Source: Candidatus Latescibacterota bacterium (lineage in GTDB: Bacteria > Latescibacterota > UBA2968 > UBA8231). Taken from it: DNA of 64,000 nt. How positions within the stretch are numbered: the first letter of the stretch is position 1; each line of letters opens with the position of its first letter. The notes under the pieces are model-generated. The model ran no database searches. It saw only the letters and a list, made by a program, of their open reading frames with translations, and had not been told where the DNA came from. Below, piece after piece: positions 18,225-58,065 of this stretch. The stretch spans positions 1,152,001-1,216,000 of the forward strand of contig OY730476.1 in NCBI GenBank assembly GCA_963422735.1, read 5' to 3'. A program made the translations under genes and the position numbers.

Positions 18225-18329
18225 GTGAGTAATACGTTCAATCGCATTCGGGCGCTGATTTCCGAGGGCAGTATCCGATTACCCGATCTCGAGAAATGGG
18301 AACTTGGATTCAAGCGGAGGCGAAAATGA
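18225..18329 (+). pseudogene. DUF4258-like toxin, internally deleted
   Basis: VSNTFNRIRALISEGSIR joined directly to PDLEKWELGFKRRRK*; ATGA overlap with the next gene. Confidence 0.45.
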
Positions 18330-18523: not shown

Positions 18524-18593
18524 CTCGTCGCTCAATCCGGGTGCTTAACTATGTCTAGAAAATTACGCGGGGTACCGCAGGACGTCTAAAGAA

Positions 18594-19433: not shown

Positions 19434-20300
19434 TCGGCCGTCGTCTTAATGCCAACCCTTACCTTCACAACGTCACCAATTCGACACTTTGCCGCCGATT
19501 CTATTTTACCAATCCACTTCTTCTTGGTCGCAGTTACCATCTGCCAAGATTCGGAGGACAACTTAGAGAAGGAAAGAGTCCCCGTCGAGAGTCTGAATCG
19601 GGTTTTAGACACCAAGTATTCACCCTCAGACTTTTGCCTGAGAATGTCGTACACTGAATCAACATGGATTGGCTTTTCTCGATCATCGAGATTACTTGTC
19701 CTATTTTCGTAAATTTTGACGAATCTTTTTGGCCGCCTTGGGTTAGTAGAGAAACGCGATGTAGAGGGTACTTTTCTAGCGATCAAGATAGCTGGCAGAA
19801 CGGCAGCCTCGAAAAGCTTGGTGTCGCCGAGGTCGATCAGTTCGACTATCTCGTAATCTTCTGCAATGAACGCTCTGATGGAGGCTCCACCTTTTGTTGA
19901 AATAAACCGATTGGAAGTGATGACACCTATAATGCCATTATCTTTTAAACACTGGATCATCGCCACCAGAAAAGCTTGGTATAAATAGATTTTGCCTTTC
20001 AGACGAAAGGCTTTTGCTAACTCCTGTGATTTCCAGGCACCGAGGACCTGCGTTCGGACGTAAGGAGGATTGGCGATTATAATATCTACAGGAGGAATAG
20101 TCTCATTGGTTGGAGACTCGTCGTTAAACAGCTCTATCTGCGCCTTTGAATCGGTGTAAAGTTCAAGGAAATCCATCCTCTTGAGAAAATTCGATTTTGA
20201 GCCAAACGCTTCTAACCGCTCTTGGGCCTTCCCGAGGGATAAATCGTCGAGCTCTATCCCTGTAATGGCGGTATTTCTTATGTATATTATCTGACAACGA
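19280..20300 (-). pseudogene. N6-adenine DNA methyltransferase (Eco57I/TaqI-like), truncated
   Basis: DIIIANPPYVRTQ, LYQAF, GVITSNRF, VGIKTTAD; the N-terminal SAM-binding motif and the C-terminus are missing. Confidence 0.8.
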
Positions 20301-43181: not shown

Positions 43182-43221
43182 CGGTGGACCAGCCTTTCTG
43201 CCGAAGGGTGTCGTTCACCTC

Positions 43222-43395
43222 GGTCGCAGGCAGGTCTCCTGACTTCCGGTTAAACGCCCTCGGCACCTTCCCAATTCGCTGCGGAATCAGTGGATACGCC
43301 AAGGACGAACCGATCACAGTGGCGGGACCGCGGCAGATTTACACTGCCTTCCCTATTCTCCCAACTGCCGTGCGGCAGCGGGCACCTGCGCCGTT
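43222..43395 (-). ncRNA. cobalamin riboswitch
   Basis: minus strand reads AGGTGCCC...AATAGGGAAGGCAGTGTAAATCTGCCGCGGTCCCGCCACTGTGA...CCACTG...GGGAAGG...AAGTCAGGAGACCTGCC (B12 box). Confidence 0.95.
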
Positions 43396-43635
43396 ATTTG
43401 ATGGGCTATTAAAAGGGCTGCGTTAGAATCTGTCAAGGGCGCGGCTCACGTCGCCTGCTGCTTCTCGATCCCGCAACAGCTAGGCCGGGGTGAGAATCGC
43501 CGCGGAAGTGGGCACCTAGGGGCTCCCCAATGGGCATCCTTCCGCATCGGCGTTTATCGGCGAATACTTTTGCCGCCGGGGGTTTTAAGACAGCCTCTAA
43601 CGCTAGTGAAAGGTCGTACCTCTCCAATGCCCCGC

Positions 43636-43840
43636 TCAGCCGGTAAAAGTGGAACTCAAGCAATTCTTCCCCGAATCGAATTCTCCGTTCTGCAACTCCT
43701 CTAGAACGGCACTGATCGTGACAATCTCGTAGTCATGGCGATGCCTATCCCACCATCGTCGAGTCCAACTACATCGTGCGGTAGTCTCCGAGTCATCCCA
43801 GGTGTCGCAATATACACTGGGAATTGTCATCTCAAGACAC
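43636..43840 (-). pseudogene. PIN-domain toxin remnant
   Basis: TIPSVY...WTRRWWD..RHDYEIVT.SAVLEEL. Confidence 0.55.
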
Positions 43841-44019
43841 GCTCGTCCGCTCACTGTAATCTTCCTGTATCCACGCACTGTGCTCGTCGCGTCCATGGCG
43901 TGGTCAATGCCTAGGCAGTTCGCGCTGTTCGACGATTTCGCCGAACAGCCCCTACCACCGACGGCAAGTCTTCCCTCTGGCCCAACGCTATAACAAAGAG
44001 GTTGGATGACAGAGCACCG

Positions 44020-44676
44020 CTAATCCCTCAGTAGAATGTTCTGCTCCTTCAGGCTCTGGATTAATTGGCTAAATTTAGGCACCAATCGGATCACGATACG
44101 TCGATTAGGGGACTGTTCACCCTTTGTTCCGGTTAGGACAACCAGCTCCCGCTCACCTAAGCCAACTGGGACGATATCGAAATTTTCCCAAGTGAAGCCG
44201 ACCTGCTCCCAATAGTCCACTACAGTTTGAGATCTTTTCAGGGATAGGCTGCGATTGTATTCCCTCTCGCCGTAACTGTCGGTGTGGCCCTCTACCATAA
44301 TACTGAACAATCTACTGTCTTTTTTTTCAATAAACTGTTTTAATTTTTGACCCATTCGTCTAAGCCGATTTTGCCCTTCGACGGGAATATCATCCAGATC
44401 AGATTCATCAAAAGAGAACAAGATATCACTGCGCATCACAATAGTACCCTCTTCCACGACGACGTCTTCCCCCTCCATAAACTCCTCTAATTCATCGAGA
44501 TCTTTCTCTATTTTACCCACCAATTCTTCCAGCGTCCGCAGACGGCTCAGATCCACATAATTCTTGATCACCATCACAACGAGAAAAAAAGTGACGCAAA
44601 TGAAAATAGCCGTGATTGCATCCGTGAAAGAAGGCCAGAAATTGAGCCCACTATGACTACTGCGATTCCTTTTCAT
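44020..44676 (-). CDS. MotB/OmpA-family protein, ZorB-like
   Basis: FWPSFTD (conserved ion-binding Asp) in a single TM helix; OmpA-like motifs DILF, EGHTD, NRSLSLKRS, NRRI. Confidence 0.85.
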   Translation of the reverse strand: MKRNRSSHSGLNFWPSFTDAITAIFICVTFFLVVMVIKNYVDLSRLRTLEELVGKIEKDLDELEEFMEGEDVVVEEGTIVMRSDILFSFDESDLDDIPVEGQNRLRRMGQKLKQFIEKKDSRLFSIMVEGHTDSYGEREYNRSLSLKRSQTVVDYWEQVGFTWENFDIVPVGLGERELVVLTGTKGEQSPNRRIVIRLVPKFSQLIQSLKEQNILLRD

Positions 44677-44715
44677 CTAGGGCTGCTTTCCCAAGCATTC
44701 AGCCGGTGGGCCTGA

Positions 44716-46353
44716 CTATTCCTTGCTATCTTTCTTAAATAATCGACGGATCCAACCCCAATTTCTTCGCGGTCGTACGGTTATAACTTGCGGCGATTTC
44801 GCTATGCCGTCTAACTGTTTTTCTATAGCCTGCGCCGTCGCATGCATGTCTTCGAGTTGGGGGATTACCTGATCTATAGCCTTCAGTACTTGGAGATCCT
44901 CGTCCGCTTTTTTAAACCCTTGGTTGATGGCTCCTACCATTTGATCTAGCTGGTTCTGCAACGTTCCTGTCGCTTTGCTCAATCCCTGCAGATCTTGGCG
45001 GAGTCTTTCCAATTCATCTTGTAAGGGTTTCTTGGCCCGTTCAAACGCCTCTCCTTGCTCGTTGAGCGTCTTCTTCTGAAGTTCGAGTAAGGCATCTTGG
45101 CTCTCCCTGACAGCTATGAGCAGGGTCTGGATGTTCACGAAATTGGGACGATAATCTGTGTTATTCAATCCTCTTATCGTATCCAGAGTCTCGGCTAGGC
45201 CATCTCCTAGGGTCTCCATTCGCGTCTCAAATGACTTAGATTGTCTGTCCATCCGATCATCAAAGGCTTGAAACTGTCGGGCCATCAAGTGCTCGCTCTC
45301 CTTGAGCATAGTATCGACGCTGCTCTTGAGCGCATTCAGAGGCTCGCTTAGCCGCTCAAAGTTCTCGATGTGTCGAGAAAACTCTATAGCCGCTCTCATT
45401 ATTTCTTTCGCCCCCGTAGCTACCGTACCCTTGTGCTGCTCAAAAATCTCCGCGCTCTTCAGACTGGCCTCGCTACTTTCCTTGAGCTTCGTGCCGCTCT
45501 CTTCTATAAGTGAGACCATGCGGGCGTTACTATCGACAATTTCCTTGAGTCTTTTGTCTAAGTATTCGGAAAGAGTAGTGAAATACTTATCGTATAGGTC
45601 GTTTACTGTTCGAGTAAAGACGCGACTTAAACGCAACTGAGGCGGGATCACCGCAAACTTGGGAGCGATCTTCGCGTTGAAGCACTCTTCCAGATTTGCC
45701 AACAATCTGTTCCTACTACGAAGTAGTAAGCTATACGGAGCATTGAGTATTAGAGAAAAAGAAAGTCCTAAAAAACTGGTAATGAACGCCAGCGGCATCC
45801 CGCTTACGGACTGTCCTAATCCTGTTAGGATGGTATTAAATACATCCTCTATTTTTACATCTTGACTCGACGTCGGTGAAATCTGCGCTCCTTGGATAAT
45901 ACCTGGGATAGGTATGACCACGATTATTAATCCAACGAACGTGCCTAGCAGGCCCAATAGAATAAGGCTACTGGTAAGTGTGCGGAATGCTTCGTCGTGT
46001 CGGGCGAGTTCATGTTCGATAGAGCCGATAAGACTATCTACATCTGGAGCTTTATTTTGTCGGTATAAGGCTTCAAAATGTTTGAGCCAACGGACGGCCA
46101 AGGGATGCCGGGCACCCCTAATAACACTTTCGGGAGCCTGCTCTGTCTTTTCCTCTATATTGAAATCAGGATTGCTTCTCTCCCATCTCTCCATCGTACG
46201 CAATCCGTTGCGATATTGCCGCGTTTTTATGCACCCTCGGACAAATAGGACAAATGCATATAGGCCGACCAAGATAATGAGAACGACAAAAATTTCCCGA
46301 ACCTGATCGCTGTTTTGGGCTAAGAATTCTAAAAGGAGATCTAAATAAGGCAT
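44716..46353 (-). CDS. MotA/TolQ/ExbB-family protein with long coiled-coil tail, ZorA-like
   Basis: 3 TM helices; LGLLGTFVGL and GMPLAFITSFLG; about 340-aa helical tail. Confidence 0.8.
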   Translation of the reverse strand: MPYLDLLLEFLAQNSDQVREIFVVLIILVGLYAFVLFVRGCIKTRQYRNGLRTMERWERSNPDFNIEEKTEQAPESVIRGARHPLAVRWLKHFEALYRQNKAPDVDSLIGSIEHELARHDEAFRTLTSSLILLGLLGTFVGLIIVVIPIPGIIQGAQISPTSSQDVKIEDVFNTILTGLGQSVSGMPLAFITSFLGLSFSLILNAPYSLLLRSRNRLLANLEECFNAKIAPKFAVIPPQLRLSRVFTRTVNDLYDKYFTTLSEYLDKRLKEIVDSNARMVSLIEESGTKLKESSEASLKSAEIFEQHKGTVATGAKEIMRAAIEFSRHIENFERLSEPLNALKSSVDTMLKESEHLMARQFQAFDDRMDRQSKSFETRMETLGDGLAETLDTIRGLNNTDYRPNFVNIQTLLIAVRESQDALLELQKKTLNEQGEAFERAKKPLQDELERLRQDLQGLSKATGTLQNQLDQMVGAINQGFKKADEDLQVLKAIDQVIPQLEDMHATAQAIEKQLDGIAKSPQVITVRPRRNWGWIRRLFKKDSKE

Positions 46354-46381
46354 GGAGGGACTCTACCGTACAAGATTTTGT

Positions 46382-47332
46382 TCATTTCGCTAGTAAGATT
46401 CCGGCCTTGACAATTACCTCAGTTCCCCGACGTAATCCAGGTGTAACAAATCGAATCACGTGACCGCGGTCGACCTGAGAATCTTCTCGCTCATCGGAAA
46501 TTTGGTGATCTTCTGGCGAGTATTTGTCCCCTTGCTTTGGCCAAATCAACTCAAGGTCGCGTTCTTGGGCAAACCTTTCCAACTTTGCGGGTTTCTGTTC
46601 TAGCGATTTTTTTTTGCCATCCAACTGTTCGATTAAACCGATCAGTGCAGAATCCCACGGGCTGCTACGACTGTCTATCTTAGCTTGGATCGTCGTCCAT
46701 TGATCTTTGAGAGCCGATCCCTCCGATATAAAAGAGACAAGATCCAATTTATTCACTGCCTCTTTGATCTTTTTAATGTCCTCGTCAATGGTCTCGGCAT
46801 ACTGTATCGACGGCATACTCTCTTCAGGTTCTAGTGGAAGTTCGTCGAGCATTTCTCGGAAACGATCTCGGGTATTTGTAATCTTTGAGTATCTTTTGTT
46901 CCATTCTTCGTCAGCATCCCGTACTTCTTCTTGGAACGATTTTAGTCCCTTTTCCACATCGGCCTCTAGCTTTCGTAGCTCTTGAAATTTGGCGTTGGTA
47001 GGGATAGATTGACAGAGATCTACGTAATCGTCGTGGGACGCTTGTATATTGTCGTGGAACTTTGTCAGCTTTTTTCTGAAGTTACTCAAATCGTCCAAAA
47101 ATACGCCAACTTTCTTCACAAAGCTCTCTTCCGCTCCATCGAAGCCCTTGGCTACATCGAGGATATCCGAGAAGACGAGATCGCCAAGACCGCCTTTGTG
47201 TAGTTCTTCGCGGATCTGTCTTGTCTTGGAGACGATTTCCTGCAGAGCTTGGAGATCTTTCTCCCAGTGGGCAACTTCGTTGTCTAGAGCGTCAACCTTT
47301 TGTTGGAATTCTTCCATAGATATCCTATCCAT
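46382..47332 (-). CDS. coiled-coil protein with C-terminal GrpE-like domain
   Basis: C-terminal GDKYSPEDHQ...VIRFVTPGLRRGTEVIVKAGILLAK resembles the GrpE head; adjacent to the Hsp70-like gene. Confidence 0.65.
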   Translation of the reverse strand: MDRISMEEFQQKVDALDNEVAHWEKDLQALQEIVSKTRQIREELHKGGLGDLVFSDILDVAKGFDGAEESFVKKVGVFLDDLSNFRKKLTKFHDNIQASHDDYVDLCQSIPTNAKFQELRKLEADVEKGLKSFQEEVRDADEEWNKRYSKITNTRDRFREMLDELPLEPEESMPSIQYAETIDEDIKKIKEAVNKLDLVSFISEGSALKDQWTTIQAKIDSRSSPWDSALIGLIEQLDGKKKSLEQKPAKLERFAQERDLELIWPKQGDKYSPEDHQISDEREDSQVDRGHVIRFVTPGLRRGTEVIVKAGILLAK

Positions 47333-47396
47333 TTTAATCTTTTGCTAGTCTTTATTTTTTAACGTCTTCATTGTTAGGTACATTGCTACAAAACAT

Positions 47397-50300
47397 TCAA
47401 CTATAGTTAAAGTCCTCGCATTTCAAGTATTCATCATAGATTTCTTCAAAATCACTTCCATCCTTTTCTTTTCCTATCGCGAAGTTGTAATAGAGCCGAC
47501 CGAGATTGCTTTCGTCGACTCGAAGCTCGAGCTTGTACTGCCAATACGCGGCTTGCTTAAAAGCTCTGTTCTCTAGCGGCATGGGAATATCCGCTGCTTT
47601 CTGCCGATCTGCTTTCCGATTTTTGTAGTTCCAATCGAAGAATTCGTACAGTAAGATACTACGAATCTTACGATCATTAGGAGAAACCCTGCTCGCATAG
47701 CGATGTACCTCTCCCTTATCTAGGGAAATCCAACGGTCGAAAATGGGGCTGAAGCCTCGCATTGGATTGTAGGAACCTATCGGATAATTTAGCTTGTGTA
47801 TCCCGAAGACTCGAAGTCTGAACTCTGGATCGCGTTGAGACATGCTGTAAATAGCCGCTCCCGAAGCCACGCTCGCCTTCAGGCCATTATTGGAACCTGA
47901 AAGAGTAGAGTCCGAAAACTCTTTAGCCTGTATCATCTCCCGGGCGACTTCTTTCACAATCGGCAATTTGGACGAATTGCCGGCCAAGATCAGGTGGTCT
48001 AGCCGGAATTCCGATATAATCTCCCGCTTGAAAAGTTCCTGCTGCATCATAGCTAGTTTTTTGAAGCCCCATTCCAATTCTCGGCTGAGCACAGAGCGAA
48101 TAGCTTGGTAATCCATAGAGCTAAGTTCCTCCGGCAAGGCGTCGCCGTTGATGCTGCGCTTTAAGCCCTCCGTGACTTGAAATACATCGCGCTCTTCCCG
48201 GCTAACTAACTCAATCTTGGGCCAATTCATTTTCTCGTCGCTAGCTAGCAGGTCCAACAATCCCTTATCTTTTGTCTGGATCAGTTCCTCGTAGCGGTCC
48301 TGGGAAAAACATTGGTCGAACAACTGGTATGTCTTGCTGTTTGTCTTAATCTCCTCAGCTAACCGATAGAGACACAGAAAGTTCCTTTTCACGATACGAT
48401 CTTGGGTGCGTAAGCCATCGCGAAGATCTTTTGCAAAGGGATAGCGACTGCGGTACTGTTCAGGGACGAGTTGCTCGTAGAAATATTTAGCCAAGTGAAA
48501 CGTCAGCAGGTTTCCTCCCAGCCGATTGTCACCATCGGAACCGAGAATTTCCACTTGCGCTTCATCATTATCCATAGTGTAACGTACGATGGACATATCG
48601 GTCGTTCCCCCACCACAGTCGAATACCCCAATTATCTGTTCATCCATATCATCATTATCAAGCTGCTTCCACACATAATACACCGCTATAGCTTCAGGTT
48701 CACTAATGGCTAGGTCAAACTTAATGTCGCGATCCTGCAGAGCCTTTTCGGCCGCATCCCGCAGAGCCTGTTTTTGGCGATTGAATACTGCCGGATAAGT
48801 CAGCACGCCCTCTTCGGGCAAATACCCGAATTCTCCAATGAAGTGCTCTACCATAAACCGGAGATAAATAGCTACTTGGTCAACCGGAGTCAGGCTGATA
48901 TGCCGCCTATTGATAGGGGGATGCCCGTTGATCAAGATGCCTTCCGACATCCCGGTAGAAATATAGATATTCTGATCGTCGGGTTGACTGAGAGCATATT
49001 TGAAATTCCAGCAGATACTGCTCATAGAATGAAGGTCGTTCATCTGCTGAAATGGCTGACGCCCAAAGCGCATGATGGCTTCCTCGCTCTCGGTCGCCAC
49101 TAAGTGATGCTCGTTAGGCTCCAGAGGTTTGGAAAGTTCCAAACGTTCCGTTTTCTTATTTGTTGTCAGAAGCTGAAAGACAGTAGGCACTTCGACACGA
49201 GGTTCATTGGTTTCAAATGCTGCCAAGCGAGGCATTGTTTCTTCATCTTCAACAACATAGGCCAAGCAAGAATTGGTCGTCCCAAAATCGATACCAATAG
49301 GATAATCTAACGGTTTGGGAGGAATTACTTCGACAGAGAGTGAATACCTATCTTCGAACGCCGGGGCTTCCGCTCCTCTAGCCTCCCCCTTGACGATGAT
49401 CTCGGGTTTAAAATACTTTGATTCTGTTACCCAAGGGATTTCGATAGTCTTTATTTGCAACTGGAGATCCAGCACACTCTCCTCATCAGCTCCCGCCGTT
49501 GAAATCTGAGGGTTAAGGATGACCGGTGCCTTCTTGGTGTCAATGACCTGCAGCCAAGGCGTATCGCTGGTCACGCTATTTATGCGTAGTGGTTCGCCCC
49601 GTAAGTGCGTAATGGTGGCACTCACCTCTTTCTGTCTTCGACTTCCGCTTATAAGTGCCGTATCGCCGGATAAACCCAGCGGATTGAAATCCACCTTGAG
49701 CACCGGCTGACGAGTGTACTTTAGATTGAGATGAAAATCGATATCACCTCTGTTCTGGATGGGAAAAACGAGATGTACAGGATGCCCTTCTTCAGACAGA
49801 GGCTGATTTTGGGTGAGCCTTACCGAAAAGGCTTTGTCTGGACCCAAGCGGAAGGGGTAGCTTGCCTCCGCTGGCACCATATCCACCACCTGCTCTCCCT
49901 TGGCCAGCCGGGGAGGCTTTTCCAAAACCACTTCGCTTGCGGCATAAAGGGCCAGATCGTGCCTTTGAGCTTCCTGATTTACCGGCCACACCTGTGCGCC
50001 GTCAGTGCCTTGGTCAAACTCCCGCCCCTGCTCGTCAGTCAGCCAGATTCGGGGAGCCTTTTGGACCCGGTAACGAAATGAAATCGGTGGCAGCGTGGAG
50101 TGCAGGATCAACCGTCCCCGTTGGCCGAGACGCCCGGTATGTAGCCGGCGTATTTCTATTTTTTCTTTTGGAGCCAAAGAAACGGGCCAATCCGCTTCCG
50201 AAACCCATTCTCCCCATTCCACTCCATCGAGACGTTCCAGTTCCACGGGTATCTTCCCGGTATTCTCAAACCGCATGATGACTGGATAGCCTTCAAAGAG

Positions 50301-50456
50301 CGTCAATAGCTCATTGGGCTTGGGAAATACCTCTAGATGGGCGAGTTGAGTCCCGCAACTGCTGCAAAAGATGCTTCCCCTCCCATAAGGCCACTGACAA
50401 ACAGGACAAGCACCCATCGCCTTATCGGCCCGCTCTTGGCTCACTTCCCTAAGCAT
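47397..50456 (-). CDS. atypical Hsp70-family ATPase with N-terminal Zn ribbon and probable Ig-like domains
   Basis: CPVC...CSSCG; GIDFGTTNS, SEPEAIA, FDCGGGTTD, LGG, LAGNSSKLP, VASGAA. Confidence 0.85.
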   Translation of the reverse strand: MLREVSQERADKAMGACPVCQWPYGRGSIFCSSCGTQLAHLEVFPKPNELLTLFEGYPVIMRFENTGKIPVELERLDGVEWGEWVSEADWPVSLAPKEKIEIRRLHTGRLGQRGRLILHSTLPPISFRYRVQKAPRIWLTDEQGREFDQGTDGAQVWPVNQEAQRHDLALYAASEVVLEKPPRLAKGEQVVDMVPAEASYPFRLGPDKAFSVRLTQNQPLSEEGHPVHLVFPIQNRGDIDFHLNLKYTRQPVLKVDFNPLGLSGDTALISGSRRQKEVSATITHLRGEPLRINSVTSDTPWLQVIDTKKAPVILNPQISTAGADEESVLDLQLQIKTIEIPWVTESKYFKPEIIVKGEARGAEAPAFEDRYSLSVEVIPPKPLDYPIGIDFGTTNSCLAYVVEDEETMPRLAAFETNEPRVEVPTVFQLLTTNKKTERLELSKPLEPNEHHLVATESEEAIMRFGRQPFQQMNDLHSMSSICWNFKYALSQPDDQNIYISTGMSEGILINGHPPINRRHISLTPVDQVAIYLRFMVEHFIGEFGYLPEEGVLTYPAVFNRQKQALRDAAEKALQDRDIKFDLAISEPEAIAVYYVWKQLDNDDMDEQIIGVFDCGGGTTDMSIVRYTMDNDEAQVEILGSDGDNRLGGNLLTFHLAKYFYEQLVPEQYRSRYPFAKDLRDGLRTQDRIVKRNFLCLYRLAEEIKTNSKTYQLFDQCFSQDRYEELIQTKDKGLLDLLASDEKMNWPKIELVSREERDVFQVTEGLKRSINGDALPEELSSMDYQAIRSVLSRELEWGFKKLAMMQQELFKREIISEFRLDHLILAGNSSKLPIVKEVAREMIQAKEFSDSTLSGSNNGLKASVASGAAIYSMSQRDPEFRLRVFGIHKLNYPIGSYNPMRGFSPIFDRWISLDKGEVHRYASRVSPNDRKIRSILLYEFFDWNYKNRKADRQKAADIPMPLENRAFKQAAYWQYKLELRVDESNLGRLYYNFAIGKEKDGSDFEEIYDEYLKCEDFNYS

Positions 50457-53400
50457 TGGCGTCCGCCATCACATATATGTCGTCTTTGCAGTGAGGATCG
50501 CGATAGTCTAGGCGTTTGGCAAAACTATCTTTGTCCTGCAAGTATCGCTTTATACGGTCGTCCAATTCGCTGTCGCTGATATCCAAACGCTCTAGCACAT
50601 CATTGAATTTTTCGCCGAAAGCCTTGTCGAGCAGGTTGTGGAACAAGTCGTTCGCATCCACACTATTGCCGTGTATCACAACTTTGGTAGCGGGATATAC
50701 ATGCTCCACTAGATGGCTTTGGAGGGCCAAGTACTGCTCAAAAGCGAGGTTATTGCCATTCAAGTGCCAGTTGTCCTGAATCTTTTGCACCTCTTGGCGC
50801 AGCCTATCTCTTATAAACTGGTCTCGGGCCAAAGTCCGGCGTGCCATCTCGAGATTAAGTCCGTAATCGTCCTCGCGCTTTCGGCCCTGTGCGCGGTAGG
50901 TCCGGTAGAATCTTCGGTTGTCATAAGTCACTACCCCGAGTAAGATACCACCAATGAGCGGCTGTAGGGCATCCACTAGCATCCGCGCTTCTTGGTCGTT
51001 TTTAGGCGGTAGGATCTCCGGATATTTGATATAGTCCTTGGTCGTGTACCGCTTGTATACATTTTGCGGCATTCCACGGTTTTTTTCGTATGCTTCGTGC
51101 AGTTTATTCAAATTGTCGATAGCGAACAGGGGAAAGGCCATCCATTGGCTGACAAATATAACCGAATCGGGGGCGTGGTACTCCACTTGAGAGGCTCGCA
51201 CGTTTTGTTCGATTTGCGTTTTCCACCTGTTTTCACCTGGAGGAAGTCCTATTGTTCTCTGGATGTGAGGATCCATACCCGAGAAACGTGGTTTTGACTC
51301 GGACATCCGTGGTTCGGCCAGCCCTGATCTTTTCAGTATCTCATCTTTCTCATTATGGTTCTGGTTTTCCACCTCTTGAACGGCGTTTCTATCAGCATAG
51401 AACTCCTTAAATAGGCCAAACGAGAACTCACTCAATGAATCCTCTACCTCTCCCCAATCACGAGGGGTATTGTCCCTATTCGCAGAGCGATTGAAGATAA
51501 TGCGGGTACAATCGCGTATGGCATCGATCTCGTTCCCTTCGCGAGTAGCGTATTCAGCAAACAGCAGCCGGGCTTCTTGCGAGCGGAAATAGGTCTCCAA
51601 AACACCTTGTAAAACTTCATTGAAACCGGCACCCGTCCGTCCTTTTTTATGGCGTAGATACGTCTCTATTTCCTCGCGGTAGTTAAGTTCGGGCATGAGA
51701 TTGAGATTGCGCACACTGGACATCCGCTTGCTATAAGAACGATAGAAGCCCCCGAAGCGGTTAGCCATCTCTTGAAGATGATCTTGAAATTTCTCCACCT
51801 TGGCCAGCAAACCACTGAGTTGCACATGAAGTTCGCCATCTGCACCCCGGACTTGGGTCTGTTGGCCGACAAAGCCGATCATGTTGTCAAGCAGGCCCTT
51901 TTCCTGCTCATGTCTCCCGGAATTGGGATTGAGCAGCCGACGGGCCGCCTCCTGCTCATAGCGATCAGTGACCCATTGCTTGAGTTGGTCCCTGACGGCC
52001 TCTACCTGCTGTTCCAGATTACGGGTGAAGAGCTGGGCATTCTGATCAAAGGACTTCCGTTTGCGTTCTTCATAATAGTTGATAGCAATGCGTTTCGTTA
52101 AGACGGCAAAGGGCATCTCCTGTCTAGCCGCTCGTAGGAGAGCCTCGTATTTATTGTACTCGTCGGAAAATTCGATTGGGATCGGCGGAGCCTCTGGTGC
52201 TTCTATGGGCCGGTTCTCCATGGCCTGCAATTCCTCTTTGACCCGCTCCAGTGCATCGACGGCGATCTTCAGCCACTCAACCATGAATTTGGGGCCGAAC
52301 TCCAAGGGGTCGCACAGTAATTTCAGACATTCATCTTCTACTCGCTTTTCGAGCTCGGGACGGTCTGAGCCAATATTTTCCAAAATCTGCTTCACACCAT
52401 CGCCCTTTTGGGTGCCTTGCTGTAACAGTCTTTCCCCTACTCGTCTCCGCACTTGGCTAACCCATTCAACCATCTGCTGCCGCGTTTGCTCCACTTGGCG
52501 GTCCAAAACCTTTTGGTCCCTTACCACCGGTGCCGCGAGCAAATCGTCCCGCAATTTATTGAAAGCCGGTTCGATCAACTCGTTGACGACCTCGTCTATC
52601 AAGGTGAAATCCTTTCCCGGCTTGACCAAGCAGCGTTTCAAAAAGAGATCCTTAGTCAGGCCCATCTGCTCCATGCGGGGTTTGACATCGGCATCATCAA
52701 AGCCCTGAGGAATTCTGTTGTCCTTGGCTATGATGAGTTCTACCAGATACTGAGCGCAGCGGTTGGCAGCCGCATTGGCCATACGAGGCTGATTCAATTC
52801 AATCTGGGAAAGCCCAAAAGATGCATACCGACGTGGAAAATACTGGACATAGTTTCCGCTGCTGAAGATGGCCATATCTTGTAGGTACTGCTCCATATTG
52901 GAACGTACGCTGCGCTTTTGAGCGGCGAATCTGGTCTTGTCGAAATCCAGCAGTAGAAATTCAGCGATCATCTGGAATGTATCGGTGAATTCGTCAATGC
53001 GTTCTCCGGCCATATTCTCCTTGTCGAGCATATAGACCGTCGAAAAAGGCGGTGCTTCCACCTGCCGTGAGGTTCCATCCCAATTAAATTCGTGGGTAGA
53101 GTACTCGCTTGTCTCCTCGTCTGTGGTGGCAATAAACCGGGGCTGCATGAAGTACTCGAGTTCCTTGAGCGCGGCAAAGCCGTTGGCATGGACGGCCTCT
53201 ACTCCTGTGGGATCCACTTTATCGTCGAAAACCGTGGGCATGGCCAGAAAAGCCGTGCGCGTAGAAGTCGAGAACAAAACTCGACATAGAAATCCGACGT
53301 CGATAAAGCAACCAGACCCCGTTCCACCACCGAGGGAAGACACAGTAATAATCTCCAAGGTGCTAGTATCTACCTCATAATCAGGGTAATGGCTGTTCAT

Positions 53401-53901
53401 GTGTGCAACGGCCTCTTGGGCAGTTACCTTTCTCCCCAATCTGTTGATGGCATCGCGAATTCTTGTGTAATGGTGGAAGAAAGCCAACCGTCCGAAGGAA
53501 CGGATCTGCGCTGCCCCTTGCGTGATAGCATTGTCGGCCATCGCGTCTAGTTCGCTGGGCAACCAGTCCCATATATGCGGATAGGCATTCTTGTTGCGCC
53601 GGTATCCAGCCAACTCCTCGGGCTGGACCCGCCCATCAATCTTCTGTGAAATGGTAAGGTCAATGAGCCTGTCCAACTCGTCAGGTACCTCCTCGCTCAG
53701 GGACTCATTGCGGATGTCAGTATCGAACCACAGGTATTCCATGACGGGTAAACCCGCTACTCTGTACTTTTCGTAGAACAGCCGCCGCAGCCGCCGCAGT
53801 ACTTCCTTTCCCGTACCGCCCAAGCCGATCAAAAGCGTGGGACGGATATCTATCGTTTGGTTTTCTTTTTTTGCTTTAGTTAGAGTACCCACCTTAGCCA
53901 T
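50449..53901 (-). CDS. large tubulin/FtsZ-like GTPase (Tubulin_2/FtsZl1-like) with long helical C-terminal region
   Basis: LLIGLGGTG, GAAQIRSFGRLAF, GGGTGSG signature, ANGFAALKEL; GAAGGAG RBS before the ATG at 53901. Confidence 0.88.
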   Translation of the reverse strand: MAKVGTLTKAKKENQTIDIRPTLLIGLGGTGKEVLRRLRRLFYEKYRVAGLPVMEYLWFDTDIRNESLSEEVPDELDRLIDLTISQKIDGRVQPEELAGYRRNKNAYPHIWDWLPSELDAMADNAITQGAAQIRSFGRLAFFHHYTRIRDAINRLGRKVTAQEAVAHMNSHYPDYEVDTSTLEIITVSSLGGGTGSGCFIDVGFLCRVLFSTSTRTAFLAMPTVFDDKVDPTGVEAVHANGFAALKELEYFMQPRFIATTDEETSEYSTHEFNWDGTSRQVEAPPFSTVYMLDKENMAGERIDEFTDTFQMIAEFLLLDFDKTRFAAQKRSVRSNMEQYLQDMAIFSSGNYVQYFPRRYASFGLSQIELNQPRMANAAANRCAQYLVELIIAKDNRIPQGFDDADVKPRMEQMGLTKDLFLKRCLVKPGKDFTLIDEVVNELIEPAFNKLRDDLLAAPVVRDQKVLDRQVEQTRQQMVEWVSQVRRRVGERLLQQGTQKGDGVKQILENIGSDRPELEKRVEDECLKLLCDPLEFGPKFMVEWLKIAVDALERVKEELQAMENRPIEAPEAPPIPIEFSDEYNKYEALLRAARQEMPFAVLTKRIAINYYEERKRKSFDQNAQLFTRNLEQQVEAVRDQLKQWVTDRYEQEAARRLLNPNSGRHEQEKGLLDNMIGFVGQQTQVRGADGELHVQLSGLLAKVEKFQDHLQEMANRFGGFYRSYSKRMSSVRNLNLMPELNYREEIETYLRHKKGRTGAGFNEVLQGVLETYFRSQEARLLFAEYATREGNEIDAIRDCTRIIFNRSANRDNTPRDWGEVEDSLSEFSFGLFKEFYADRNAVQEVENQNHNEKDEILKRSGLAEPRMSESKPRFSGMDPHIQRTIGLPPGENRWKTQIEQNVRASQVEYHAPDSVIFVSQWMAFPLFAIDNLNKLHEAYEKNRGMPQNVYKRYTTKDYIKYPEILPPKNDQEARMLVDALQPLIGGILLGVVTYDNRRFYRTYRAQGRKREDDYGLNLEMARRTLARDQFIRDRLRQEVQKIQDNWHLNGNNLAFEQYLALQSHLVEHVYPATKVVIHGNSVDANDLFHNLLDKAFGEKFNDVLERLDISDSELDDRIKRYLQDKDSFAKRLDYRDPHCKDDIYVMADANA

Positions 53902-54043
53902 AGTATTCTCCTTCAATTTTGCTTCAACCAGTCATTAAATGCTGTCTGAAAACCTTCGGCTGCGCTCAGGTCGAAGCCCCCGGCGGCTGTCGCACGAGGG
54001 GCAAAGTATCCGCAGATGAGCGCAGAGGCGGATTGCTTGGGAC

Positions 54044-55087
54044 TCACTCGGAATTTTCAGCGGCCGATGGCCGGGCGACAAGTTTTACTATCACCACAAT
54101 GAGAATTAGGATCACCATCCAAGCGATGAAGACTCGCCATTCAATTTGCGACCATGACACCCAGCCCATTGAAAAATCAAAAAGGCCGCTCAACCCACAG
54201 GAGGCGATCACCGCAAAGCCCCCCCACGATACGAGGGCGGATATGCCAAAAGCCGTGGCCGGGTGCTTGTCTCGGTTCTTAATGAGCCCGCTAAAGAGTA
54301 TATAGACCGAAAAGATATAGACGATTACAGAAAACACCAGAATCCAGACTATGCGCCCAACCTCCACATAGCGAAAGGTGCCCTTCGATCTGGTCACCGG
54401 TGGCGGGACTCCTACCCGAACAGGTTCAAATTGGTCCGAGGGGATGCCCAGCAGCGGTTTAGCTTCATCAATTGAGACCGCAAAATTGAGATTCTGCCCC
54501 TCGCCATGGCTAGAGCTTAGATTAAAACTTACCACGCCAATTACCTCCCCGGTCTGGTCGAATAAAGGCCCGCCACTATTGCCCGGCGATACGGCAGCAT
54601 CCGTCTGAATCAGCCTGAGGCCCTCCGGGGTAGTACGGACCTCGGAGATAATCCCTTCAGTGACCGAGTACTCTAGCCCTAACGGGTTGCCTATTGCCAC
54701 GACGGGATCGCCCGAACTTATATACTCCCCTGATCCAAGCCTAGACTGCTGTAGGTGTTGGTTGCGCGGATCGACGTTTATCACCGCTAGATCTTTGAGT
54801 TCGTCTTGGGCGACAACGCCCGTAATCGGCATCCAAGTTCCGTTGAACGGCTTGGCCCATCCTTCTTTGATGCCCTTGATTACATGGTGCGCCGTGAGAA
54901 TTTGGCCCGTTGACTTGACGATGATTCCGCTCCCCACTTCCTCTCCTTCATTGGTAGAGACCTTGAGGAATACTACGCTTCCCTTCTCTTCCTTGGCAAT
55001 CTGCTGAGTAAACGTGGAGCCGCTTTGTCCCGGCCCGCCACACCCCATCCAGCCGATAATCAGTATTATGATGATGTGCCGTTTCAT
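54044..55087 (-). CDS. trypsin-like (HtrA/S1C-type) serine protease with three C-terminal TM helices and no PDZ domain
   Basis: lipobox-like WMGC; LTAHHV, DLA, IQTDAAVSPGNSGGPL catalytic triad; hydrophobic C-terminus. Confidence 0.88.
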   Translation of the reverse strand: MKRHIIIILIIGWMGCGGPGQSGSTFTQQIAKEEKGSVVFLKVSTNEGEEVGSGIIVKSTGQILTAHHVIKGIKEGWAKPFNGTWMPITGVVAQDELKDLAVINVDPRNQHLQQSRLGSGEYISSGDPVVAIGNPLGLEYSVTEGIISEVRTTPEGLRLIQTDAAVSPGNSGGPLFDQTGEVIGVVSFNLSSSHGEGQNLNFAVSIDEAKPLLGIPSDQFEPVRVGVPPPVTRSKGTFRYVEVGRIVWILVFSVIVYIFSVYILFSGLIKNRDKHPATAFGISALVSWGGFAVIASCGLSGLFDFSMGWVSWSQIEWRVFIAWMVILILIVVIVKLVARPSAAENSE

Positions 55088-55102
55088 CTTGCCTCCCTCG
55101 TG

Positions 55103-56704
55103 CTATTTGAGGCGTTCCAGTTCAATATTGCCCTTGTGGTTGAAAATCTCATCCTTTTCAAAAGCCACCCCCTCCTCGCTGACCGGATCGCCCATCCGAT
55201 TTATTAACTCGGCCCTTGGCAGTAAGCAGTATTTGCATTTGAACAAGCCGTCTCGCCGCAAGTATCCCAAAACGATATCCTTTCCGCTTTGGTTTGTGTA
55301 CCCCAATTCCTTTTGACCGCCGGGGCGCATCCAGTACTTGTACTCGACATCTGCCAGCCGGTAAACGAGCCTTCTAAAATAAACCCTTCCTCCGGCAGCT
55401 ACCACAGCGATGGGTAGCAAGATCACCTTGACCCAAGCCCACCACAGATAGAGAGGGGAACGGACTTGCAGCCTGCCTCTTATGGCTCCTCCCTTGGGCA
55501 CCACTTCCAAACCCTCTCGGTCTCGGTGTAGGAAGTGTATCAGATCTTCTGGCGTATAGATACGCTCGACCTCTTGGAGGTTGTCGGTGAAGTACTTCTC
55601 CTGATAAGTCGGAGTCATGCGAAACGAGCCGGGCGGTATCTCCAAGACGACCTTGGACATATATTGCACTGGAATCGGGCTTATACGCGCCATGCCAAGC
55701 TGGTCGAAGAAGCCGACTTCGTTGGGCAATAATGGTCCTAGGTGGACCCGGCACGAATAGCGGTATTTGTTTTGGCTATTGTGCTCTAGCTTCTCTTCAA
55801 GGCGGGGTGGAGTAACTCGTCCTCTCCCGCCGGCTCGACTCCAGTACCGCCGATCTCCGGGCTGCATGGGAACGATCCTAGGTTGGCTTACCTTCAACCG
55901 CACCGGATTACCATGCCCATCGGTCGGCTCGATATTCAGGTAGCTCAATTGCGACTCTAAGGTAAAGGAGAAATATACCGACTCGGATTCGTCCATGCCG
56001 ATGTCGCTCGGCTGGTCCGAATGTGCCCGGCGTTTGCGATGTAGAACAATGCGGTGATCTAGCGGTTTCATCAGCATCGGTTCCAAACCGCCAGTCTTGA
56101 GTCGGGAGATGAGTTTGCCGAATCTAGTGCGCTGATCTTCTTCTGTGAGATAGGCATATAGGACCGCCCCACGCGGACCTTGGTGGTATGTCTTGTCCGG
56201 GTGATTGAACAACCGTCCGTCAAAGGGCAGACTCAGCGGCACGGCATATAGTACTTGTACTGCATCCTCGGCAAAACGTGTATAGAGCCCTCGAACATCC
56301 TCGTCATTGGTGGTCGCCTGCACATTATCGGTTAAGAAAAAAGTAATCGGTGCCCATCCAAGCCCTTCTTTAAAAGCCCTGAGCAAATTGGTATAGCTGC
56401 CCCAGCGTGCGTCTTGGATCTCCTCGATCCAAACGAGCGAATCCGGGTGTTGGGATATAAAAAATAAAGTGCCTGCCTCCAGTTGCTGATCTTGGCAGGC
56501 TTTTTCCAACGAGGTCAGCAATTTCTGTAGCTCACCTGTTTGCTGGAAGCCCTCCATTGAACCAGAGCCATCGACCAAGATGCTGACATCGGTCCCAGCG
56601 GCGGTACGAGGGCCGCCAAACCCTAGGCAGCACAGCAGAGCAACGTACCAGATTCGTTGGTTTTCAAATGGCCAATAGGTCATAGCGATATAGATGGTAC
56701 TCAT
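55103..56704 (-). CDS. membrane-anchored vWA-domain protein
   Basis: signal-like N-terminus; MIDAS motif DGSGS, TNL, FLTD; single TM near the C-terminus followed by a small cytoplasmic domain. Confidence 0.7.
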   Translation of the reverse strand: MSTIYIAMTYWPFENQRIWYVALLCCLGFGGPRTAAGTDVSILVDGSGSMEGFQQTGELQKLLTSLEKACQDQQLEAGTLFFISQHPDSLVWIEEIQDARWGSYTNLLRAFKEGLGWAPITFFLTDNVQATTNDEDVRGLYTRFAEDAVQVLYAVPLSLPFDGRLFNHPDKTYHQGPRGAVLYAYLTEEDQRTRFGKLISRLKTGGLEPMLMKPLDHRIVLHRKRRAHSDQPSDIGMDESESVYFSFTLESQLSYLNIEPTDGHGNPVRLKVSQPRIVPMQPGDRRYWSRAGGRGRVTPPRLEEKLEHNSQNKYRYSCRVHLGPLLPNEVGFFDQLGMARISPIPVQYMSKVVLEIPPGSFRMTPTYQEKYFTDNLQEVERIYTPEDLIHFLHRDREGLEVVPKGGAIRGRLQVRSPLYLWWAWVKVILLPIAVVAAGGRVYFRRLVYRLADVEYKYWMRPGGQKELGYTNQSGKDIVLGYLRRDGLFKCKYCLLPRAELINRMGDPVSEEGVAFEKDEIFNHKGNIELERLK

Positions 56705-57917
56705 GATCGCGAGTCAGCACGTACACGTATTTGCCGAAACCCGCTGGCGGCACAACTGGCTCTTCGCCTAAAGGCCAGCTTCGCAAGAAAGGTTCCCCTC
56801 CCCATTCATCAAGACGGGAAAGACGAAATTCCGTATTAGCTCCCACTCCTCTTTGGAAATTGGCGACCAAGCCGCCCAAGCCTTTGGTCTGATCGAGGTG
56901 CCTCATGGAATATCCGGGACTACACTCCAATTTGGACGCAACTTGCCGATCCAACGGATCGAACAACAGCATAAAATTAGACCCTATCGCCATATAGCAA
57001 TAGCCGGACTCGATCCGCAATGCCTGTAGGGCCTGTACCTCTACCTTGGTTCGGCCCGGAATTTCTTTTAGCACCTGTTGGCCGACTAACTGTAGGGCAC
57101 ACAAGCCCCCTTCTTGATTCAATAGCCATATTGACGGATCCTCGCCGCGCATCACGCCCTCCCAAGCGGCTAATGTGTCGCTGAGGGTACCCCTATACGG
57201 GATTTTCTCTCCTTGTTCTAAATCCAAGAAAGCAACCCTGTTTTCCTCCTCTATTAAGCCTAGATAGACATCGCTTCCCCGAATTGGAATCATTTCTTCG
57301 ATATGCGACGAATTTTTGTATGGCTTTTGCAATTCGTCGAAAATGCGGTCCTTGCTCTTCCAGTATCGATCGCAACTTGCTTTATCTACCTTATACATAT
57401 GAATAGTCAACGCCTCTTGGGCCAGCAGGAAAAGTCGATTCCGGCCTAAGGCAATCTTCTCGACGCGCTCACATTCCACGGCAACCTGCTTCCACGAAGT
57501 AACTTGCAGCATATCGTCGTTCAACAACGCAGAGGTCGGAAATACCTGCAGCGTCCCCACCTCCGTGAGCGCGTAAATCCACCAGCGGTCAAAATCCACC
57601 TGACGCAAGGAAGCCCCATTGAGCCGAGGCAGGTCGCGTGGCTCGTCCTCTATGTAGGTACTCATTTCTCCGCTGGATTTATTCACTAATACAGGCTGGC
57701 CGAATACGTTAAAGAAGTCGTCAACTTGGTCCATAATGACCTCCATATTCCCAACAGCACTGTCTTTACTCTCTCCAGAAGGTATGTCGGCCATGTAATC
57801 GACAGGTTTGCTCTCGACAGCATCGCCGCAAACTGCACAAAAATTAGCGAGTGCATGATGCTCGCGACCATCTTTAGAACACATCCAAGCGTTCTTCTGC
57901 CAATTCCAGTTTTGCAT
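56664..57917 (-). CDS. hypothetical protein with N-terminal Zn ribbon and probable beta-propeller
   Basis: C-x6-H..NFCAVCG; beta-rich repeats ending PPAGFGKYVYV; first gene of the operon. Confidence 0.65.
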   Translation of the reverse strand: MQNWNWQKNAWMCSKDGREHHALANFCAVCGDAVESKPVDYMADIPSGESKDSAVGNMEVIMDQVDDFFNVFGQPVLVNKSSGEMSTYIEDEPRDLPRLNGASLRQVDFDRWWIYALTEVGTLQVFPTSALLNDDMLQVTSWKQVAVECERVEKIALGRNRLFLLAQEALTIHMYKVDKASCDRYWKSKDRIFDELQKPYKNSSHIEEMIPIRGSDVYLGLIEEENRVAFLDLEQGEKIPYRGTLSDTLAAWEGVMRGEDPSIWLLNQEGGLCALQLVGQQVLKEIPGRTKVEVQALQALRIESGYCYMAIGSNFMLLFDPLDRQVASKLECSPGYSMRHLDQTKGLGGLVANFQRGVGANTEFRLSRLDEWGGEPFLRSWPLGEEPVVPPAGFGKYVYVLTRDHEYHLYRYDLLAI

Positions 57918-58009
57918 TATTTTTCGTAACCTTTGATCAAGTTAAACTCTATCCCAATCTCGCGTACAACCTCAAAACTAACCGGTACGGTGTCGCTTGT
58001 GATTTTGGT

Positions 58010-58037
58010 AAAATAGACCGCTACTGAGTAATGTCAA
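58010..58037 (-). promoter_or_regulatory. sigma70-type promoter for the 8-gene operon
   Basis: TTGACA-N16-TATTTT about 90 bp upstream of the ATG at 57917. Confidence 0.55.
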
Positions 58038-58065
58038 ATAAATGGCAAAGATACCGACCCGGCCC

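Follow-up and report, generated by a model that had tools for sequence, protein, structure and literature searches.

An eight-gene cassette at a variable chromosomal site

We analysed a 64,000-nt stretch of Candidatus Latescibacterota bacterium contig OY730476.1 (GCA_963422735.1), called here the window, whose numbering is used for all positions. Within it lie eight close-packed open reading frames (ORFs) on the minus strand, at 44020-57917 in the ORF listing, which we named g1 to g8 in transcription order. They encode a Zn-ribbon protein (g1), a membrane protein with vWA and FHA domains (g2), an HtrA-like serine protease (g3), a large GTPase of the Tubulin_2 (FtsZl1) family (g4), an Hsp70-like ATPase (g5), a GrpE-like protein (g6), and a pair of proteins resembling ZorA and ZorB (g7 and g8), the subunits of the motor found in Zorya systems. 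We describe this cassette, its inheritance, and the case for reading it as a Zorya-related machine.

The genes overlap at two junctions (g1/g2 by 41 nt and g4/g5 by 8 nt) and are separated at the others by 15 nt (g2/g3), 127 nt (g3/g4), 64 nt (g5/g6), 28 nt (g6/g7), and 39 nt (g7/g8). Their base composition also sets them apart: the G+C fraction (GC) is 0.449-0.533 in 1-kb windows across 44000-57999, about 12 points lower than the 0.579-0.680 of the flanks. An earlier reading of this DNA made from the letters alone (the sequence-only reading) had described eight packed minus-strand ORFs with mostly short gaps, two overlaps, and low GC, and all of these features are present where it placed them. 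It had also put the operon behind a sigma70-like promoter. A candidate site, TTGACA-16-TATTTT, does lie upstream of g1 (58010-58037, minus strand; 10 of 12 positions match), but promoter-like sites in the region number 11 against 13.8 ± 4.2 in shuffled sequences, which is not above chance. Because such sites are not enriched over shuffles, we base the operon call on the packing of the genes and not on this site.

The sequence-only reading overlooked that the operon is an insertion, cleanly present or absent. Four complete genomes of the same genus lack it (G134, G133, G129, and G135), and in these the two flanking genes, a TonB-receptor-like gene and a glycogen-debranching enzyme gene, are adjacent. 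The blastn matches of these empty sites end at window position 43443 and resume at about 58113-58120 (at 58021 in G129), and only 13 bp separate the flanks in G134. Because homology to the empty sites stops at these points, we define the cassette as 43444-58112, an accessory segment of 14.7 kb marked by low GC. At its ends we found neither a terminal direct repeat nor an att-like site. Downstream of g8 the cassette carries a non-coding tail (43444-44019) in which no ORF has a family match; a relative seen in sequencing runs X19 and X20 lacks 437 bp of this tail (43528-43966) and has 38 other letters in their place. In yet another genome, G132, the same site holds no cassette and instead a single ORF of 1927 amino acids (aa) with He_PIG Ig repeats and a type IX secretion system (T9SS) sorting domain (L061:819-6602). 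This different content marks the site as a variable spot.

Where the cassette is present, it is inherited as a unit. Seven close loci at 72-96% identity hold all eight genes in the same order (7/7; two copies are damaged), and the two flanking genes are shared by six of these loci. A search of the phylum with g5 found the Hsp70-like gene in 16 of 168 genomes: eight of the 31 genomes in the window's genus, one more in its family, and seven in two other families of the class. These last seven form a second clade, with proteins only 25-48% identical to those of the window and with different flanks; the g1-g8 order is kept in six of them, and the seventh locus ends at a contig edge. Tubulin_2 genes occur in 17 of the 168 genomes; 16 of these coincide exactly with the genomes that have the Hsp70-like gene, which lies adjacent, and the Tubulin_2 of the seventeenth is of a different, 431-aa type. 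The fastest-evolving member is g6, which is recognisable in the second clade by position and size alone (15-19% identity between clades). The ratio of nonsynonymous to synonymous substitution rates (dN/dS) is 0.12-0.50 for every gene, indicating purifying selection; it is lowest for g8 (0.12), and g1 and g6 are the least constrained (0.44 for g6). Every catalytic or ligand motif that we checked, in the g3 protease, the g5 Hsp70, the g4 tubulin, the ZorB-like g8, and the g2 vWA domain, is invariant across both clades. The proposal that the eight genes form one unit is thus borne out by the order kept in the close loci and in the second clade. At two second-clade loci, the ZorB-like gene is followed directly by a gene for a tyrosine recombinase of the Phage_integrase family, about 295 aa long (L026:16966-17865 and L028:5126-6013), which in L026 abuts the ZorB-like stop codon; this gene may serve the mobility of the cassette or be of Xer type.

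Different parts of the operon have different closest relatives. The g4 of the window is nearest to those of L002 and L006 (86-87%), with L003-L005 at 76%, and its g6 is nearest to those of L005 and L007 (87-89%), with L002 at 62%; this shift in the nearest relative along the operon suggests recombination between variants. Insertions are also seen. In genome G146, g4 is split into ORFs of 492 and 687 aa by an insert of about 1.1 kb (L007:11481-12491) that carries a 336-aa ORF on the opposite strand and is probably an insertion sequence (IS) element. Three 100%-identical IS-like repeats (L033:16719-22332), each with a 324-aa ORF without a Pfam match, are dispersed over the 3' half of a related operon on a Latescibacteria contig that is more distant; ZorAB-like genes were not detected in this operon.

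The motor pair and its partner proteins

The last two genes of the operon encode the motor-like pair. The g7 protein (44716-46353; 545 aa) is a ZorA-like A subunit, with three transmembrane (TM) segments, as the sequence-only reading had claimed, followed by an all-helical tail of about 300 aa. It matches the PADLOC ZorA3 model (9e-12) and, weakly, Pfam MotA_ExbB; its AlphaFold2 (AF2) model is helical from residue 168 to 519, the all-helical tail beginning at about residue 235. The g8 protein (44020-44676; 218 aa) is a ZorB-like B subunit, with a TM helix bearing an invariant aspartate, Asp19, and an OmpA-type peptidoglycan-binding domain (OmpA 2e-12, 47.7 bits). The PADLOC ZorB1 model aligns to residues 5-212 (1e-20), and the ZorB chain 8qyd_F in the PDB matches residues 2-153, TM helix included (3e-6). 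The motif around the aspartate, WPSFTD, is found in 13 of 13 sequences; the longer FWPSFTD quoted in the sequence-only reading corresponds to residues 13-19, and the tubulin motif that it quoted, GGGTGSG, to g4 residues 196-202. In the parts of the Zorya papers that describe the motor (PMC11946911 and PMC11890865), ZorAB is a proton-driven, peptidoglycan-binding 5:2 motor that phage invasion activates and whose tail passes on the signal.

As references for the g7 family we took the canonical Zorya systems of the phylum and paralogs from the genome itself, four of them TolQ/ExbB-like and two MotA-like. The strongest hhalign match of the family is to ZorA1 of this phylum, with a probability of 98.0 and a score of 110; ZorA2 follows with 95.6 and 71, TolQ/ExbB with 92.4 and 55, and the MotA-like proteins with 49.9 and 39; as a control, ZorA1 against ZorA2 gives 98.4 and 116. 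A maximum-likelihood tree separates the TolQ/ExbB/MotA-like proteins from a group containing ZorA and the A subunits of the tubulin systems, with support of 87/83, a split to which the tail columns, filled by the long proteins only, may contribute. The references in this tree are Zorya types I and II, with no type III. A Foldseek search with the g7 model returned ZorA (8qyd_A) first, at E 6e-4, followed by ExbB at 1.2e-3; sequence and profile searches of the PDB with g7 found only coiled-coil look-alikes such as chemoreceptors. As the sequence-only reading had anticipated, the pair groups with ZorAB and not with the TolQ/ExbB/MotA paralogs, on the strength of the hhalign scores and the tree.

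The resemblance is nevertheless distant. Canonical Zorya is present in other Latescibacterota genomes (L097-L104), as type I (ZorA1/ZorB1/ZorC1) at five loci and type II (ZorA2/ZorB2/ZorE2) at three; there the PADLOC ZorA models score 160-360 bits and the ZorB models 207-329 bits, compared with only 42 and 72 bits for g7 and g8. Among the eight proteins PADLOC found no match to ZorC, ZorD, ZorE, ZorF, ZorG, or any other named system, though the same library finds ZorC1 and ZorE2 elsewhere in the phylum; this is the outcome that the sequence-only reading expected, with at most partial ZorA and ZorB matches. A three-TM A subunit with a long tail, joined to an OmpA-type B subunit that bears the TM aspartate, agrees with the descriptions in the Zorya structure papers. 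We conclude that g7 and g8 represent a divergent ZorAB lineage that is not a member of types I or II. Two genomes, G053 and G085, hold both the tubulin cassette and a canonical Zorya system, and the g7/g8-type pair is therefore dedicated to the cassette.

Both subunits vary in length among relatives. In the g7 orthologues of L003, L004, L006, and L007, the tail differs by duplicated blocks of about 30 residues (alignment columns 300-320 and 600-690), giving proteins of 529-633 aa. The second-clade ZorB-like protein is longer than g8, with 330 aa in L026, L028, and L031, 304 aa in L030, and 376 aa in L032; the insert resembles a second, degenerate OmpA-like repeat, to which L032 adds a low-complexity stretch rich in GT(K/E). 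Long A-subunit tails are described in PMC11946911 for all Zorya subtypes, with tail length functionally important.

The largest gene, g4 (50449-53916), encodes a Tubulin_2 GTPase (PF13809, 8e-64; 216.6 bits, cut-off 27) whose C-terminal region is long and conserved. Its TTG start gives 1155 aa, and a database copy of 1150 aa implies an ATG start at 53901. The GTP-binding loops T1 and T4 are intact, with GLGGTGKE and (G/A)GGTGSG each found in 13 of 13 sequences, and invariant columns are spread over the full length of the protein. A sequence search with g4 found no relative in the PDB; a word-based search with its C-terminal part returned at least 16 proteins. Prediction of a complex of two copies of residues 1-440 with GTP scored 0.00 and is uninformative either way about self-assembly. 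Within the conserved C-terminal region, residues 979-997 (window 50947-51003) form a hydrophobic 19-mer with a Kyte-Doolittle mean of 1.78 and invariant Leu, Ala, Ile, and Gly positions, which may be a membrane-binding or a buried helix.

The gene that follows, g5 (47397-50456; 1019 aa), encodes a Zn-ribbon (a weak Zn_Ribbon_1 match), a region of about 340 aa without assignment, an Hsp70-type ATPase (PF00012, 5e-15; 55.3 bits against a cut-off of 20.6), and a C-terminal region of about 150 aa. The ATPase motifs phosphate-1, phosphate-2, and connect (DFG(T/S)TNS, SEPEA, and DCGGGTTD) are kept in 15 of 15 sequences; no substrate-binding domain is recognisable. The family is rare: 30 cluster representatives match at E ≤ 1e-30 and 110 at E ≤ 1e-10, among 1.84 billion. 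Directly downstream, g6 (46382-47332; 316 aa) combines a coiled coil with a GrpE-like C-terminus and is a candidate nucleotide-exchange factor. Its GrpE score of 24.5 bits falls just under the Pfam cut-off of 25.8, which its positional equivalents in two distant relatives pass (26.7 bits in L034 and 36.0 bits in L050); a profile search of the PDB with g6 returned no GrpE.

Two membrane proteins are encoded upstream of the tubulin. The g3 product (54044-55087; 347 aa) is an HtrA-like serine protease (Trypsin_2, 3e-29) with an N-terminal signal or lipobox-like segment and three C-terminal TM segments, the hydrophobic stretches lying at residues 246-264, 277-303, and 319-337. It matches NCBIfam DegP/HtrA models at 3.5e-41, though far under their cut-offs, and the His, Asp, and Ser motifs of the protease are kept in 14 of 14 sequences. 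The g2 product (55103-56704; 533 aa) was assigned by its AF2 model and motifs: it comprises a signal or anchor segment, a vWA domain with a metal-ion-dependent adhesion site (MIDAS), a beta-sandwich region, a TM helix at residues 418-436, and an FHA domain at residues 443-533. The model has a pLDDT of 73 overall and 81-86 over the FHA domain. In a VIA-align comparison with 48,161 PDB representatives, more than 30 FHA chains match this domain with Z 6.9-9.4, the best at Z 8-9.4 with a root-mean-square deviation of 2.1-2.8 over 75-91 aligned residues. Residues 35-209 match the vWA chains NorD, Rpn10, and CMG2 with middling Z values of 7.0-7.5, and the vWA motifs are invariant, with DGSGSM, the Thr of YT(N/H)L, and (L/I)TDN each in 14 of 14 sequences. 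The g2 protein has no Pfam vWA match and no match at all in the Pfam, NCBIfam, and PADLOC libraries, a Foldseek search with the whole model found nothing at E ≤ 1e-3, and sequence and profile searches of the PDB likewise gave nothing usable. In an hhalign comparison of the g2 family with two single plasmid vWA proteins, the probability was at most 1.6%, yet the MIDAS positions were aligned. The hydrophobic profile and a basic stretch behind the TM helix predict an external vWA domain and a cytoplasmic FHA domain. The sequence-only reading had missed the FHA domain, which is thus an addition to it.

The first gene, g1 (56664-57917; 417 aa), encodes a Zn-ribbon protein, with C13, C27, and C30 invariant, whose remainder is beta-rich. 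It has no match in Pfam, NCBIfam, or PADLOC, no TM segment, and no Walker A motif, which is in fact missing from all eight proteins. Atlas look-alikes include PQQ and NHL propellers at 0.77-0.78, which are leads only, and unnamed clusters at 0.85-0.90. The first knuckle of the Zn-ribbon reads CxxC in the second clade and in L033 and C-S/F-K-D/E in the window's clade, where the metal site may, judging by these residues, be degenerate. A search of the PDB gave g1 a weak Zn-ribbon likeness to ArnA, at E 0.08. The Sulfolobus ArnA structure (PDB 5a8i) in fact matches the cassette twice, by its Zn-ribbon to the N-terminus of g1 and by its FHA domain to g2 residues 443-533 (Z 8.7). ArnA pairs with the vWA protein ArnB, and the pairing of FHA and vWA may be an old module. 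Taken together, the domain calls of the sequence-only reading were mostly right: the protease, tubulin, HSP70, OmpA, and ZorA/ZorB assignments hold by profile and the vWA domain by fold and motif, with GrpE narrowly missing its cut-off and the propeller proposed for g1 not confirmed. NCBIfam points to the same families, though none of its curated cut-offs is reached.

Evidence for expression comes from a relative. Two metatranscriptomic RNA-Seq runs of one study contain contigs 90-95% identical to the cassette region, covering 27 and 26 of 30 bins of window 43000-58999, and some contigs span the g4/g3 and g2/g1 junctions; uncovered operon bins are no evidence either way. In a third run, which is RNA by guess only, pieces at least 99% identical cover 29 of 30 bins. 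These runs lend weak support to transcription of the relative's operon, because DNA carry-over is possible. Elsewhere in the window, about 24-29 kb from the cassette, a GmrSD_N (DUF262-type) protein (14908-16500) and an Eco57I/N6_Mtase-like ORF (19280-20173) may form a restriction-type locus.

Proposed function and competing explanations

A scan of metagenomes with the tubulin alignment found 18 more distant loci, ten of which have sequence beside the tubulin gene. A large Hsp70-like gene is present in eight of these ten clusters (L033, L034, L035, L038, L041, L045, L046, and L050), is uncertain in L043, and is absent from the tubulin cluster of L042. A GrpE-like gene often accompanies it, so that these distant relatives retain a tubulin, Hsp70, and GrpE core; in L034 and L050 the GrpE-like gene comes after the Hsp70-like one and scores above the Pfam cut-off. 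ZorA-like genes are found in L046 (582 aa) and L050 (525 aa), the latter passing the MotA_ExbB cut-off and lying beside a 223-aa ZorB-like OmpA protein. This L050 cluster, with tubulin, Hsp70, GrpE, and ZorAB-like genes, has BrxF on one side and BrxA/PglZ on the other (1302-1778 and 17646-19534). On plasmids, Tubulin_2-vWA loci occur without Hsp70: in Nostoc among CHAT, caspase, and S8 peptidase genes, in Azospirillum among caspases and OmpA proteins, and in Allomeiothermus between IS701 copies and beside BrxL, helicase, and methylase genes. A tblastn search of plasmids with g7 gave no match.

We propose that the products of the cassette work together as a single membrane-spanning machine. Most likely it is a Zorya-related conflict (anti-phage) system with an NTPase module in place of the usual nucleases, and we put the probability of this reading at about 0.5. 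We infer the function from the parts and their predicted topology, the intact motifs, the joint inheritance, the accessory and mosaic behaviour, and the Zorya literature. A role in conflict is suggested by the presence of the cassette in eight of 31 genomes of the genus, the clean indel, the low GC, the shifting nearest relative, and the IS-like insertions, and also by the location of relatives beside BREX genes (L050) or beside caspase, CHAT, and BrxL genes (the plasmids).

In the machine that we envisage, the peptidoglycan-anchored motor would detect a breach of the envelope, as reported for Zorya, and the periplasmic vWA/protease pair may join in this sensing. The rotating ZorA-like tail and the FHA domain would carry the signal across the membrane, and the signal would trigger GTP-dependent assembly or remodelling of the tubulin-like g4. 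The dedicated Hsp70/GrpE pair could load or reset g4 or set the threshold for its state (compare the thresholding idea in PMC7159879). The output would be non-nucleolytic and could act locally, by sequestration or blockage at the site of entry, or consist in proteolysis by g3 or in cell arrest. The more specific version of this proposal, in which the cassette is a fourth kind of Zorya whose ZorAB motor gates GTP-dependent tubulin assembly, is serviced by Hsp70/GrpE, and is wired to a vWA-FHA sensor and a protease, is possible, but we regard it as tentative.

Several observations weigh against a Zorya-related conflict system. No nuclease or other recognised effector is found among the eight genes. 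Among the six metagenome loci with at least 5 kb on both sides, ZorA-like genes occur in L046 and L050 only, and L043 has an OmpA protein only, with no ZorA-like gene; a scan of viral contigs with the tubulin alignment found no relative. In our tree, ZorA of types I and II form a clade (99/96) that excludes g7, and the curated NCBIfam Zorya cut-offs are missed (ZorA_4 at 16.4 against 500 bits, ZorA_2 at 13 against 100, and ZorB1 at 32.8 against 400). By fold (VIA-align), TolQ/ExbB (Z 12.4-13.2) and ZorA (Z 11.8-12.6) are tied as matches to the g7 membrane domain, MotA/PomA being at Z 8-9; because fold alone gives a tie, the closer relation of g7 to ZorA than to TolQ/ExbB/MotA rests on sequence. 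In the window's genome the neighbours of the cassette are metabolic and transport genes, not a defence island, and the sharing of one site by six of seven close relatives also fits old vertical inheritance with losses. Finally, the main text of PMC2875224 reports that the T7 and C-terminal elements needed for FtsZ-type filaments were not found in FtsZl1, and its authors accordingly doubt that the protein polymerises.

Some of these points favour an accessory machine for envelope maintenance or membrane remodelling, in which a Tol-Pal-like, ion-driven motor anchored in the peptidoglycan, a cytoskeletal GTPase, the chaperone pair, and a periplasmic quality-control protease would mend or reshape the envelope, with no role against phage. 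The resemblance of g3 to HtrA/DegP, the equal structural nearness of the g7 membrane domain to TolQ/ExbB and ZorA, and the housekeeping nature of the flanking genes all fit such a machine, as does the membrane remodelling proposed for FtsZl1-vWA-OmpA operons in the main text of PMC2875224. So too do the RNA-library contigs, which span most of the relative's operon with no phage known to be present. A maintenance role sits poorly, however, with a cassette that is found in only eight of 31 congeners as a clean indel of foreign GC, that is broken by IS-like insertions in some lineages, and whose relatives have BREX genes on both sides or caspase and CHAT genes around them. The genomes also have separate TolQ/ExbB sets, and G053 and G085 hold the cassette together with canonical Zorya. 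We consider this explanation unlikely, though a serious competitor.

We think it improbable that the genes encode a motor-driven surface, gliding, or secretion apparatus comparable to the TolQR- and GldLM-like motors that act on surface proteins, in which the ZorAB-like unit would drive movement or export of an envelope component with the cytoplasmic NTPases as a track. The idea draws on T9SS cargo: the Ig-repeat protein with a T9SS sorting domain that occupies the same site in G132, a 1849-aa T9SS-sorted Ig-repeat protein encoded before g1 on the same strand in L033, and T9SS-type sorting domains elsewhere in the window. Such cargo genes are not kept with the cassette at other loci, however; the conserved eight include no outer-membrane, secretin, or adhesin gene, and the B subunit is of the OmpA/ZorB type. 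That an orphan ZorAB pair and an unrelated FtsZl1 operon are merely adjacent, as the absence of ZorAB-like genes from several distant Tubulin_2-Hsp70 loci and the opposite strand of the pair in L050 might suggest, is very hard to credit when g5-g6-g7-g8 follow one another with gaps of 28-64 nt in an order kept across clades at 25-48% identity and in different neighbourhoods, when the 16 genomes of the phylum with the Hsp70-like gene show the full set wherever the context was examined, and when genomes with canonical Zorya elsewhere keep the dedicated pair.

If the reading of the cassette as a Zorya-related machine is true, the ZorAB-type motor would be a general envelope-to-cytoplasm transducer that drives quite different outputs, and the cassette would join three separate in-silico strands: FtsZl1-vWA-OmpA operons, the tubulin/HSP70 themes of conflict systems, and Zorya. 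Were the cassette a fourth kind of Zorya, it would be a bacterial immune system with a cytoskeletal polymer as its effector and would provide the first function for the FtsZl1 family, to which none has been assigned since 2010. In either case, this is a concrete 14.7-kb cassette of eight genes with intact motifs; it can be cloned, and it offers a way to ask whether FtsZl1 proteins polymerise.

Comparison with known systems

The sequence-only reading knew of no described system with this combination of genes. No named system matches the cassette, and the full eight-gene set was not found in the literature that we searched; the novelty was overstated in part, since FtsZl1-vWA-OmpA operons (PMC2875224) and the tubulin and HSP70-GrpE themes of predicted conflict systems (PMC7159879) are in print. 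In the same literature we found no vWA-TM-FHA architecture in a Tubulin_2 operon context, no union of the tubulin and Hsp70/GrpE themes without a DO-GTPase, nothing relevant on Zorya with tubulin, Hsp70, vWA, or Tubulin_2 or under the terms 'type IV Zorya' and 'Zorya-like', and no ZorAB-type motor in FtsZl1-type operons, although the supplementary tables of PMC2875224 and PMC7159879 could list such neighbours.

The 5:2 motors TolQR-Pal and ExbBD-TonB share with g7 the fold of the membrane domain (Z 12.4-13.2 over 195-205 aligned residues). Unlike the cassette's pair, their A subunits have no long tail and their B subunits no OmpA-type domain, and the profile score of the g7 family against them is about half of that against ZorA1. 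The chaperone genes resemble the DnaK-GrpE cycle in that the Hsp70 ATPase motifs of g5 are intact and a GrpE-like C-terminus is encoded by the next gene. They differ from it in g5, which carries a Zn-ribbon within some 380 additional N-terminal residues, lacks a recognisable substrate-binding domain, and scores tenfold below every NCBIfam DnaK and HscA cut-off; the cassette also has no DnaJ.

The DO-GTPase and GAP1-N2 systems described by Kaur, Burroughs, Iyer, and Aravind in 2020 (PMC7159879) are predicted to be NTP-gated conflict systems acting near the membrane, with NTP-dependent thresholding as the proposed principle. As presented in the text of that paper, tubulin and HSP70-GrpE are themes of these systems that do not overlap and that occur in Firmicutes and Actinobacteria only. 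The likeness to the cassette is extensive and includes a tubulin whose C-terminus is helical, a membrane protein with an extracellular vWA domain, HSP70 and GrpE, Zn-ribbons, TM components, and trypsin-like peptidases. In contrast to these systems, the cassette has no Walker A motif or GTPase-family match and hence no DO-GTPase; the absence of GAP1 is read from g1 having no match, in libraries that contain no GAP1 model. The cassette also unites both themes with a ZorAB-type motor, in Latescibacterota, and MotA goes unmentioned in the text of PMC7159879.

FtsZl1 genes were described by Makarova and Koonin in 2010 (PMC2875224) beside vWA, OmpA-like, kinase, and GTPase genes. As in the operons in the main text of that paper, a Tubulin_2 protein whose C-terminal part is long and helical is encoded together with an OmpA-domain protein and a membrane vWA protein that retains its MIDAS. 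The cassette differs in lacking a kinase or P-loop GTPase and in that its 'OmpA' protein is the B subunit of a ZorAB-type motor; the main text names no MotA, Hsp70, DnaK, or GrpE, though some of these might be among the unnamed families A1-A2 and B1-B9 of Additional files 5 and 6.

Zorya itself has three subtypes, each pairing ZorAB with DNA-targeting effectors, in the descriptions given by PMC11946911 and PMC11890865. With types I-III the cassette shares a three-TM A subunit with a long helical tail, a B subunit with a TM aspartate and a peptidoglycan-binding domain, and accessory status, and the profile match between g7 and ZorA1 is about as strong as that between ZorA1 and ZorA2. It differs in having six other genes, with no nuclease, in place of ZorC, ZorD, ZorE, ZorF, or ZorG, in the position of g7 outside the ZorA I and II clade, in missing the curated cut-offs, and in the helical linker, some 40 aa long, that joins the TM helix of g8 to its OmpA domain. 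The cassette is therefore a candidate for a further type of Zorya or, equally, for an FtsZl1 system whose 'OmpA' partner is a ZorAB motor.

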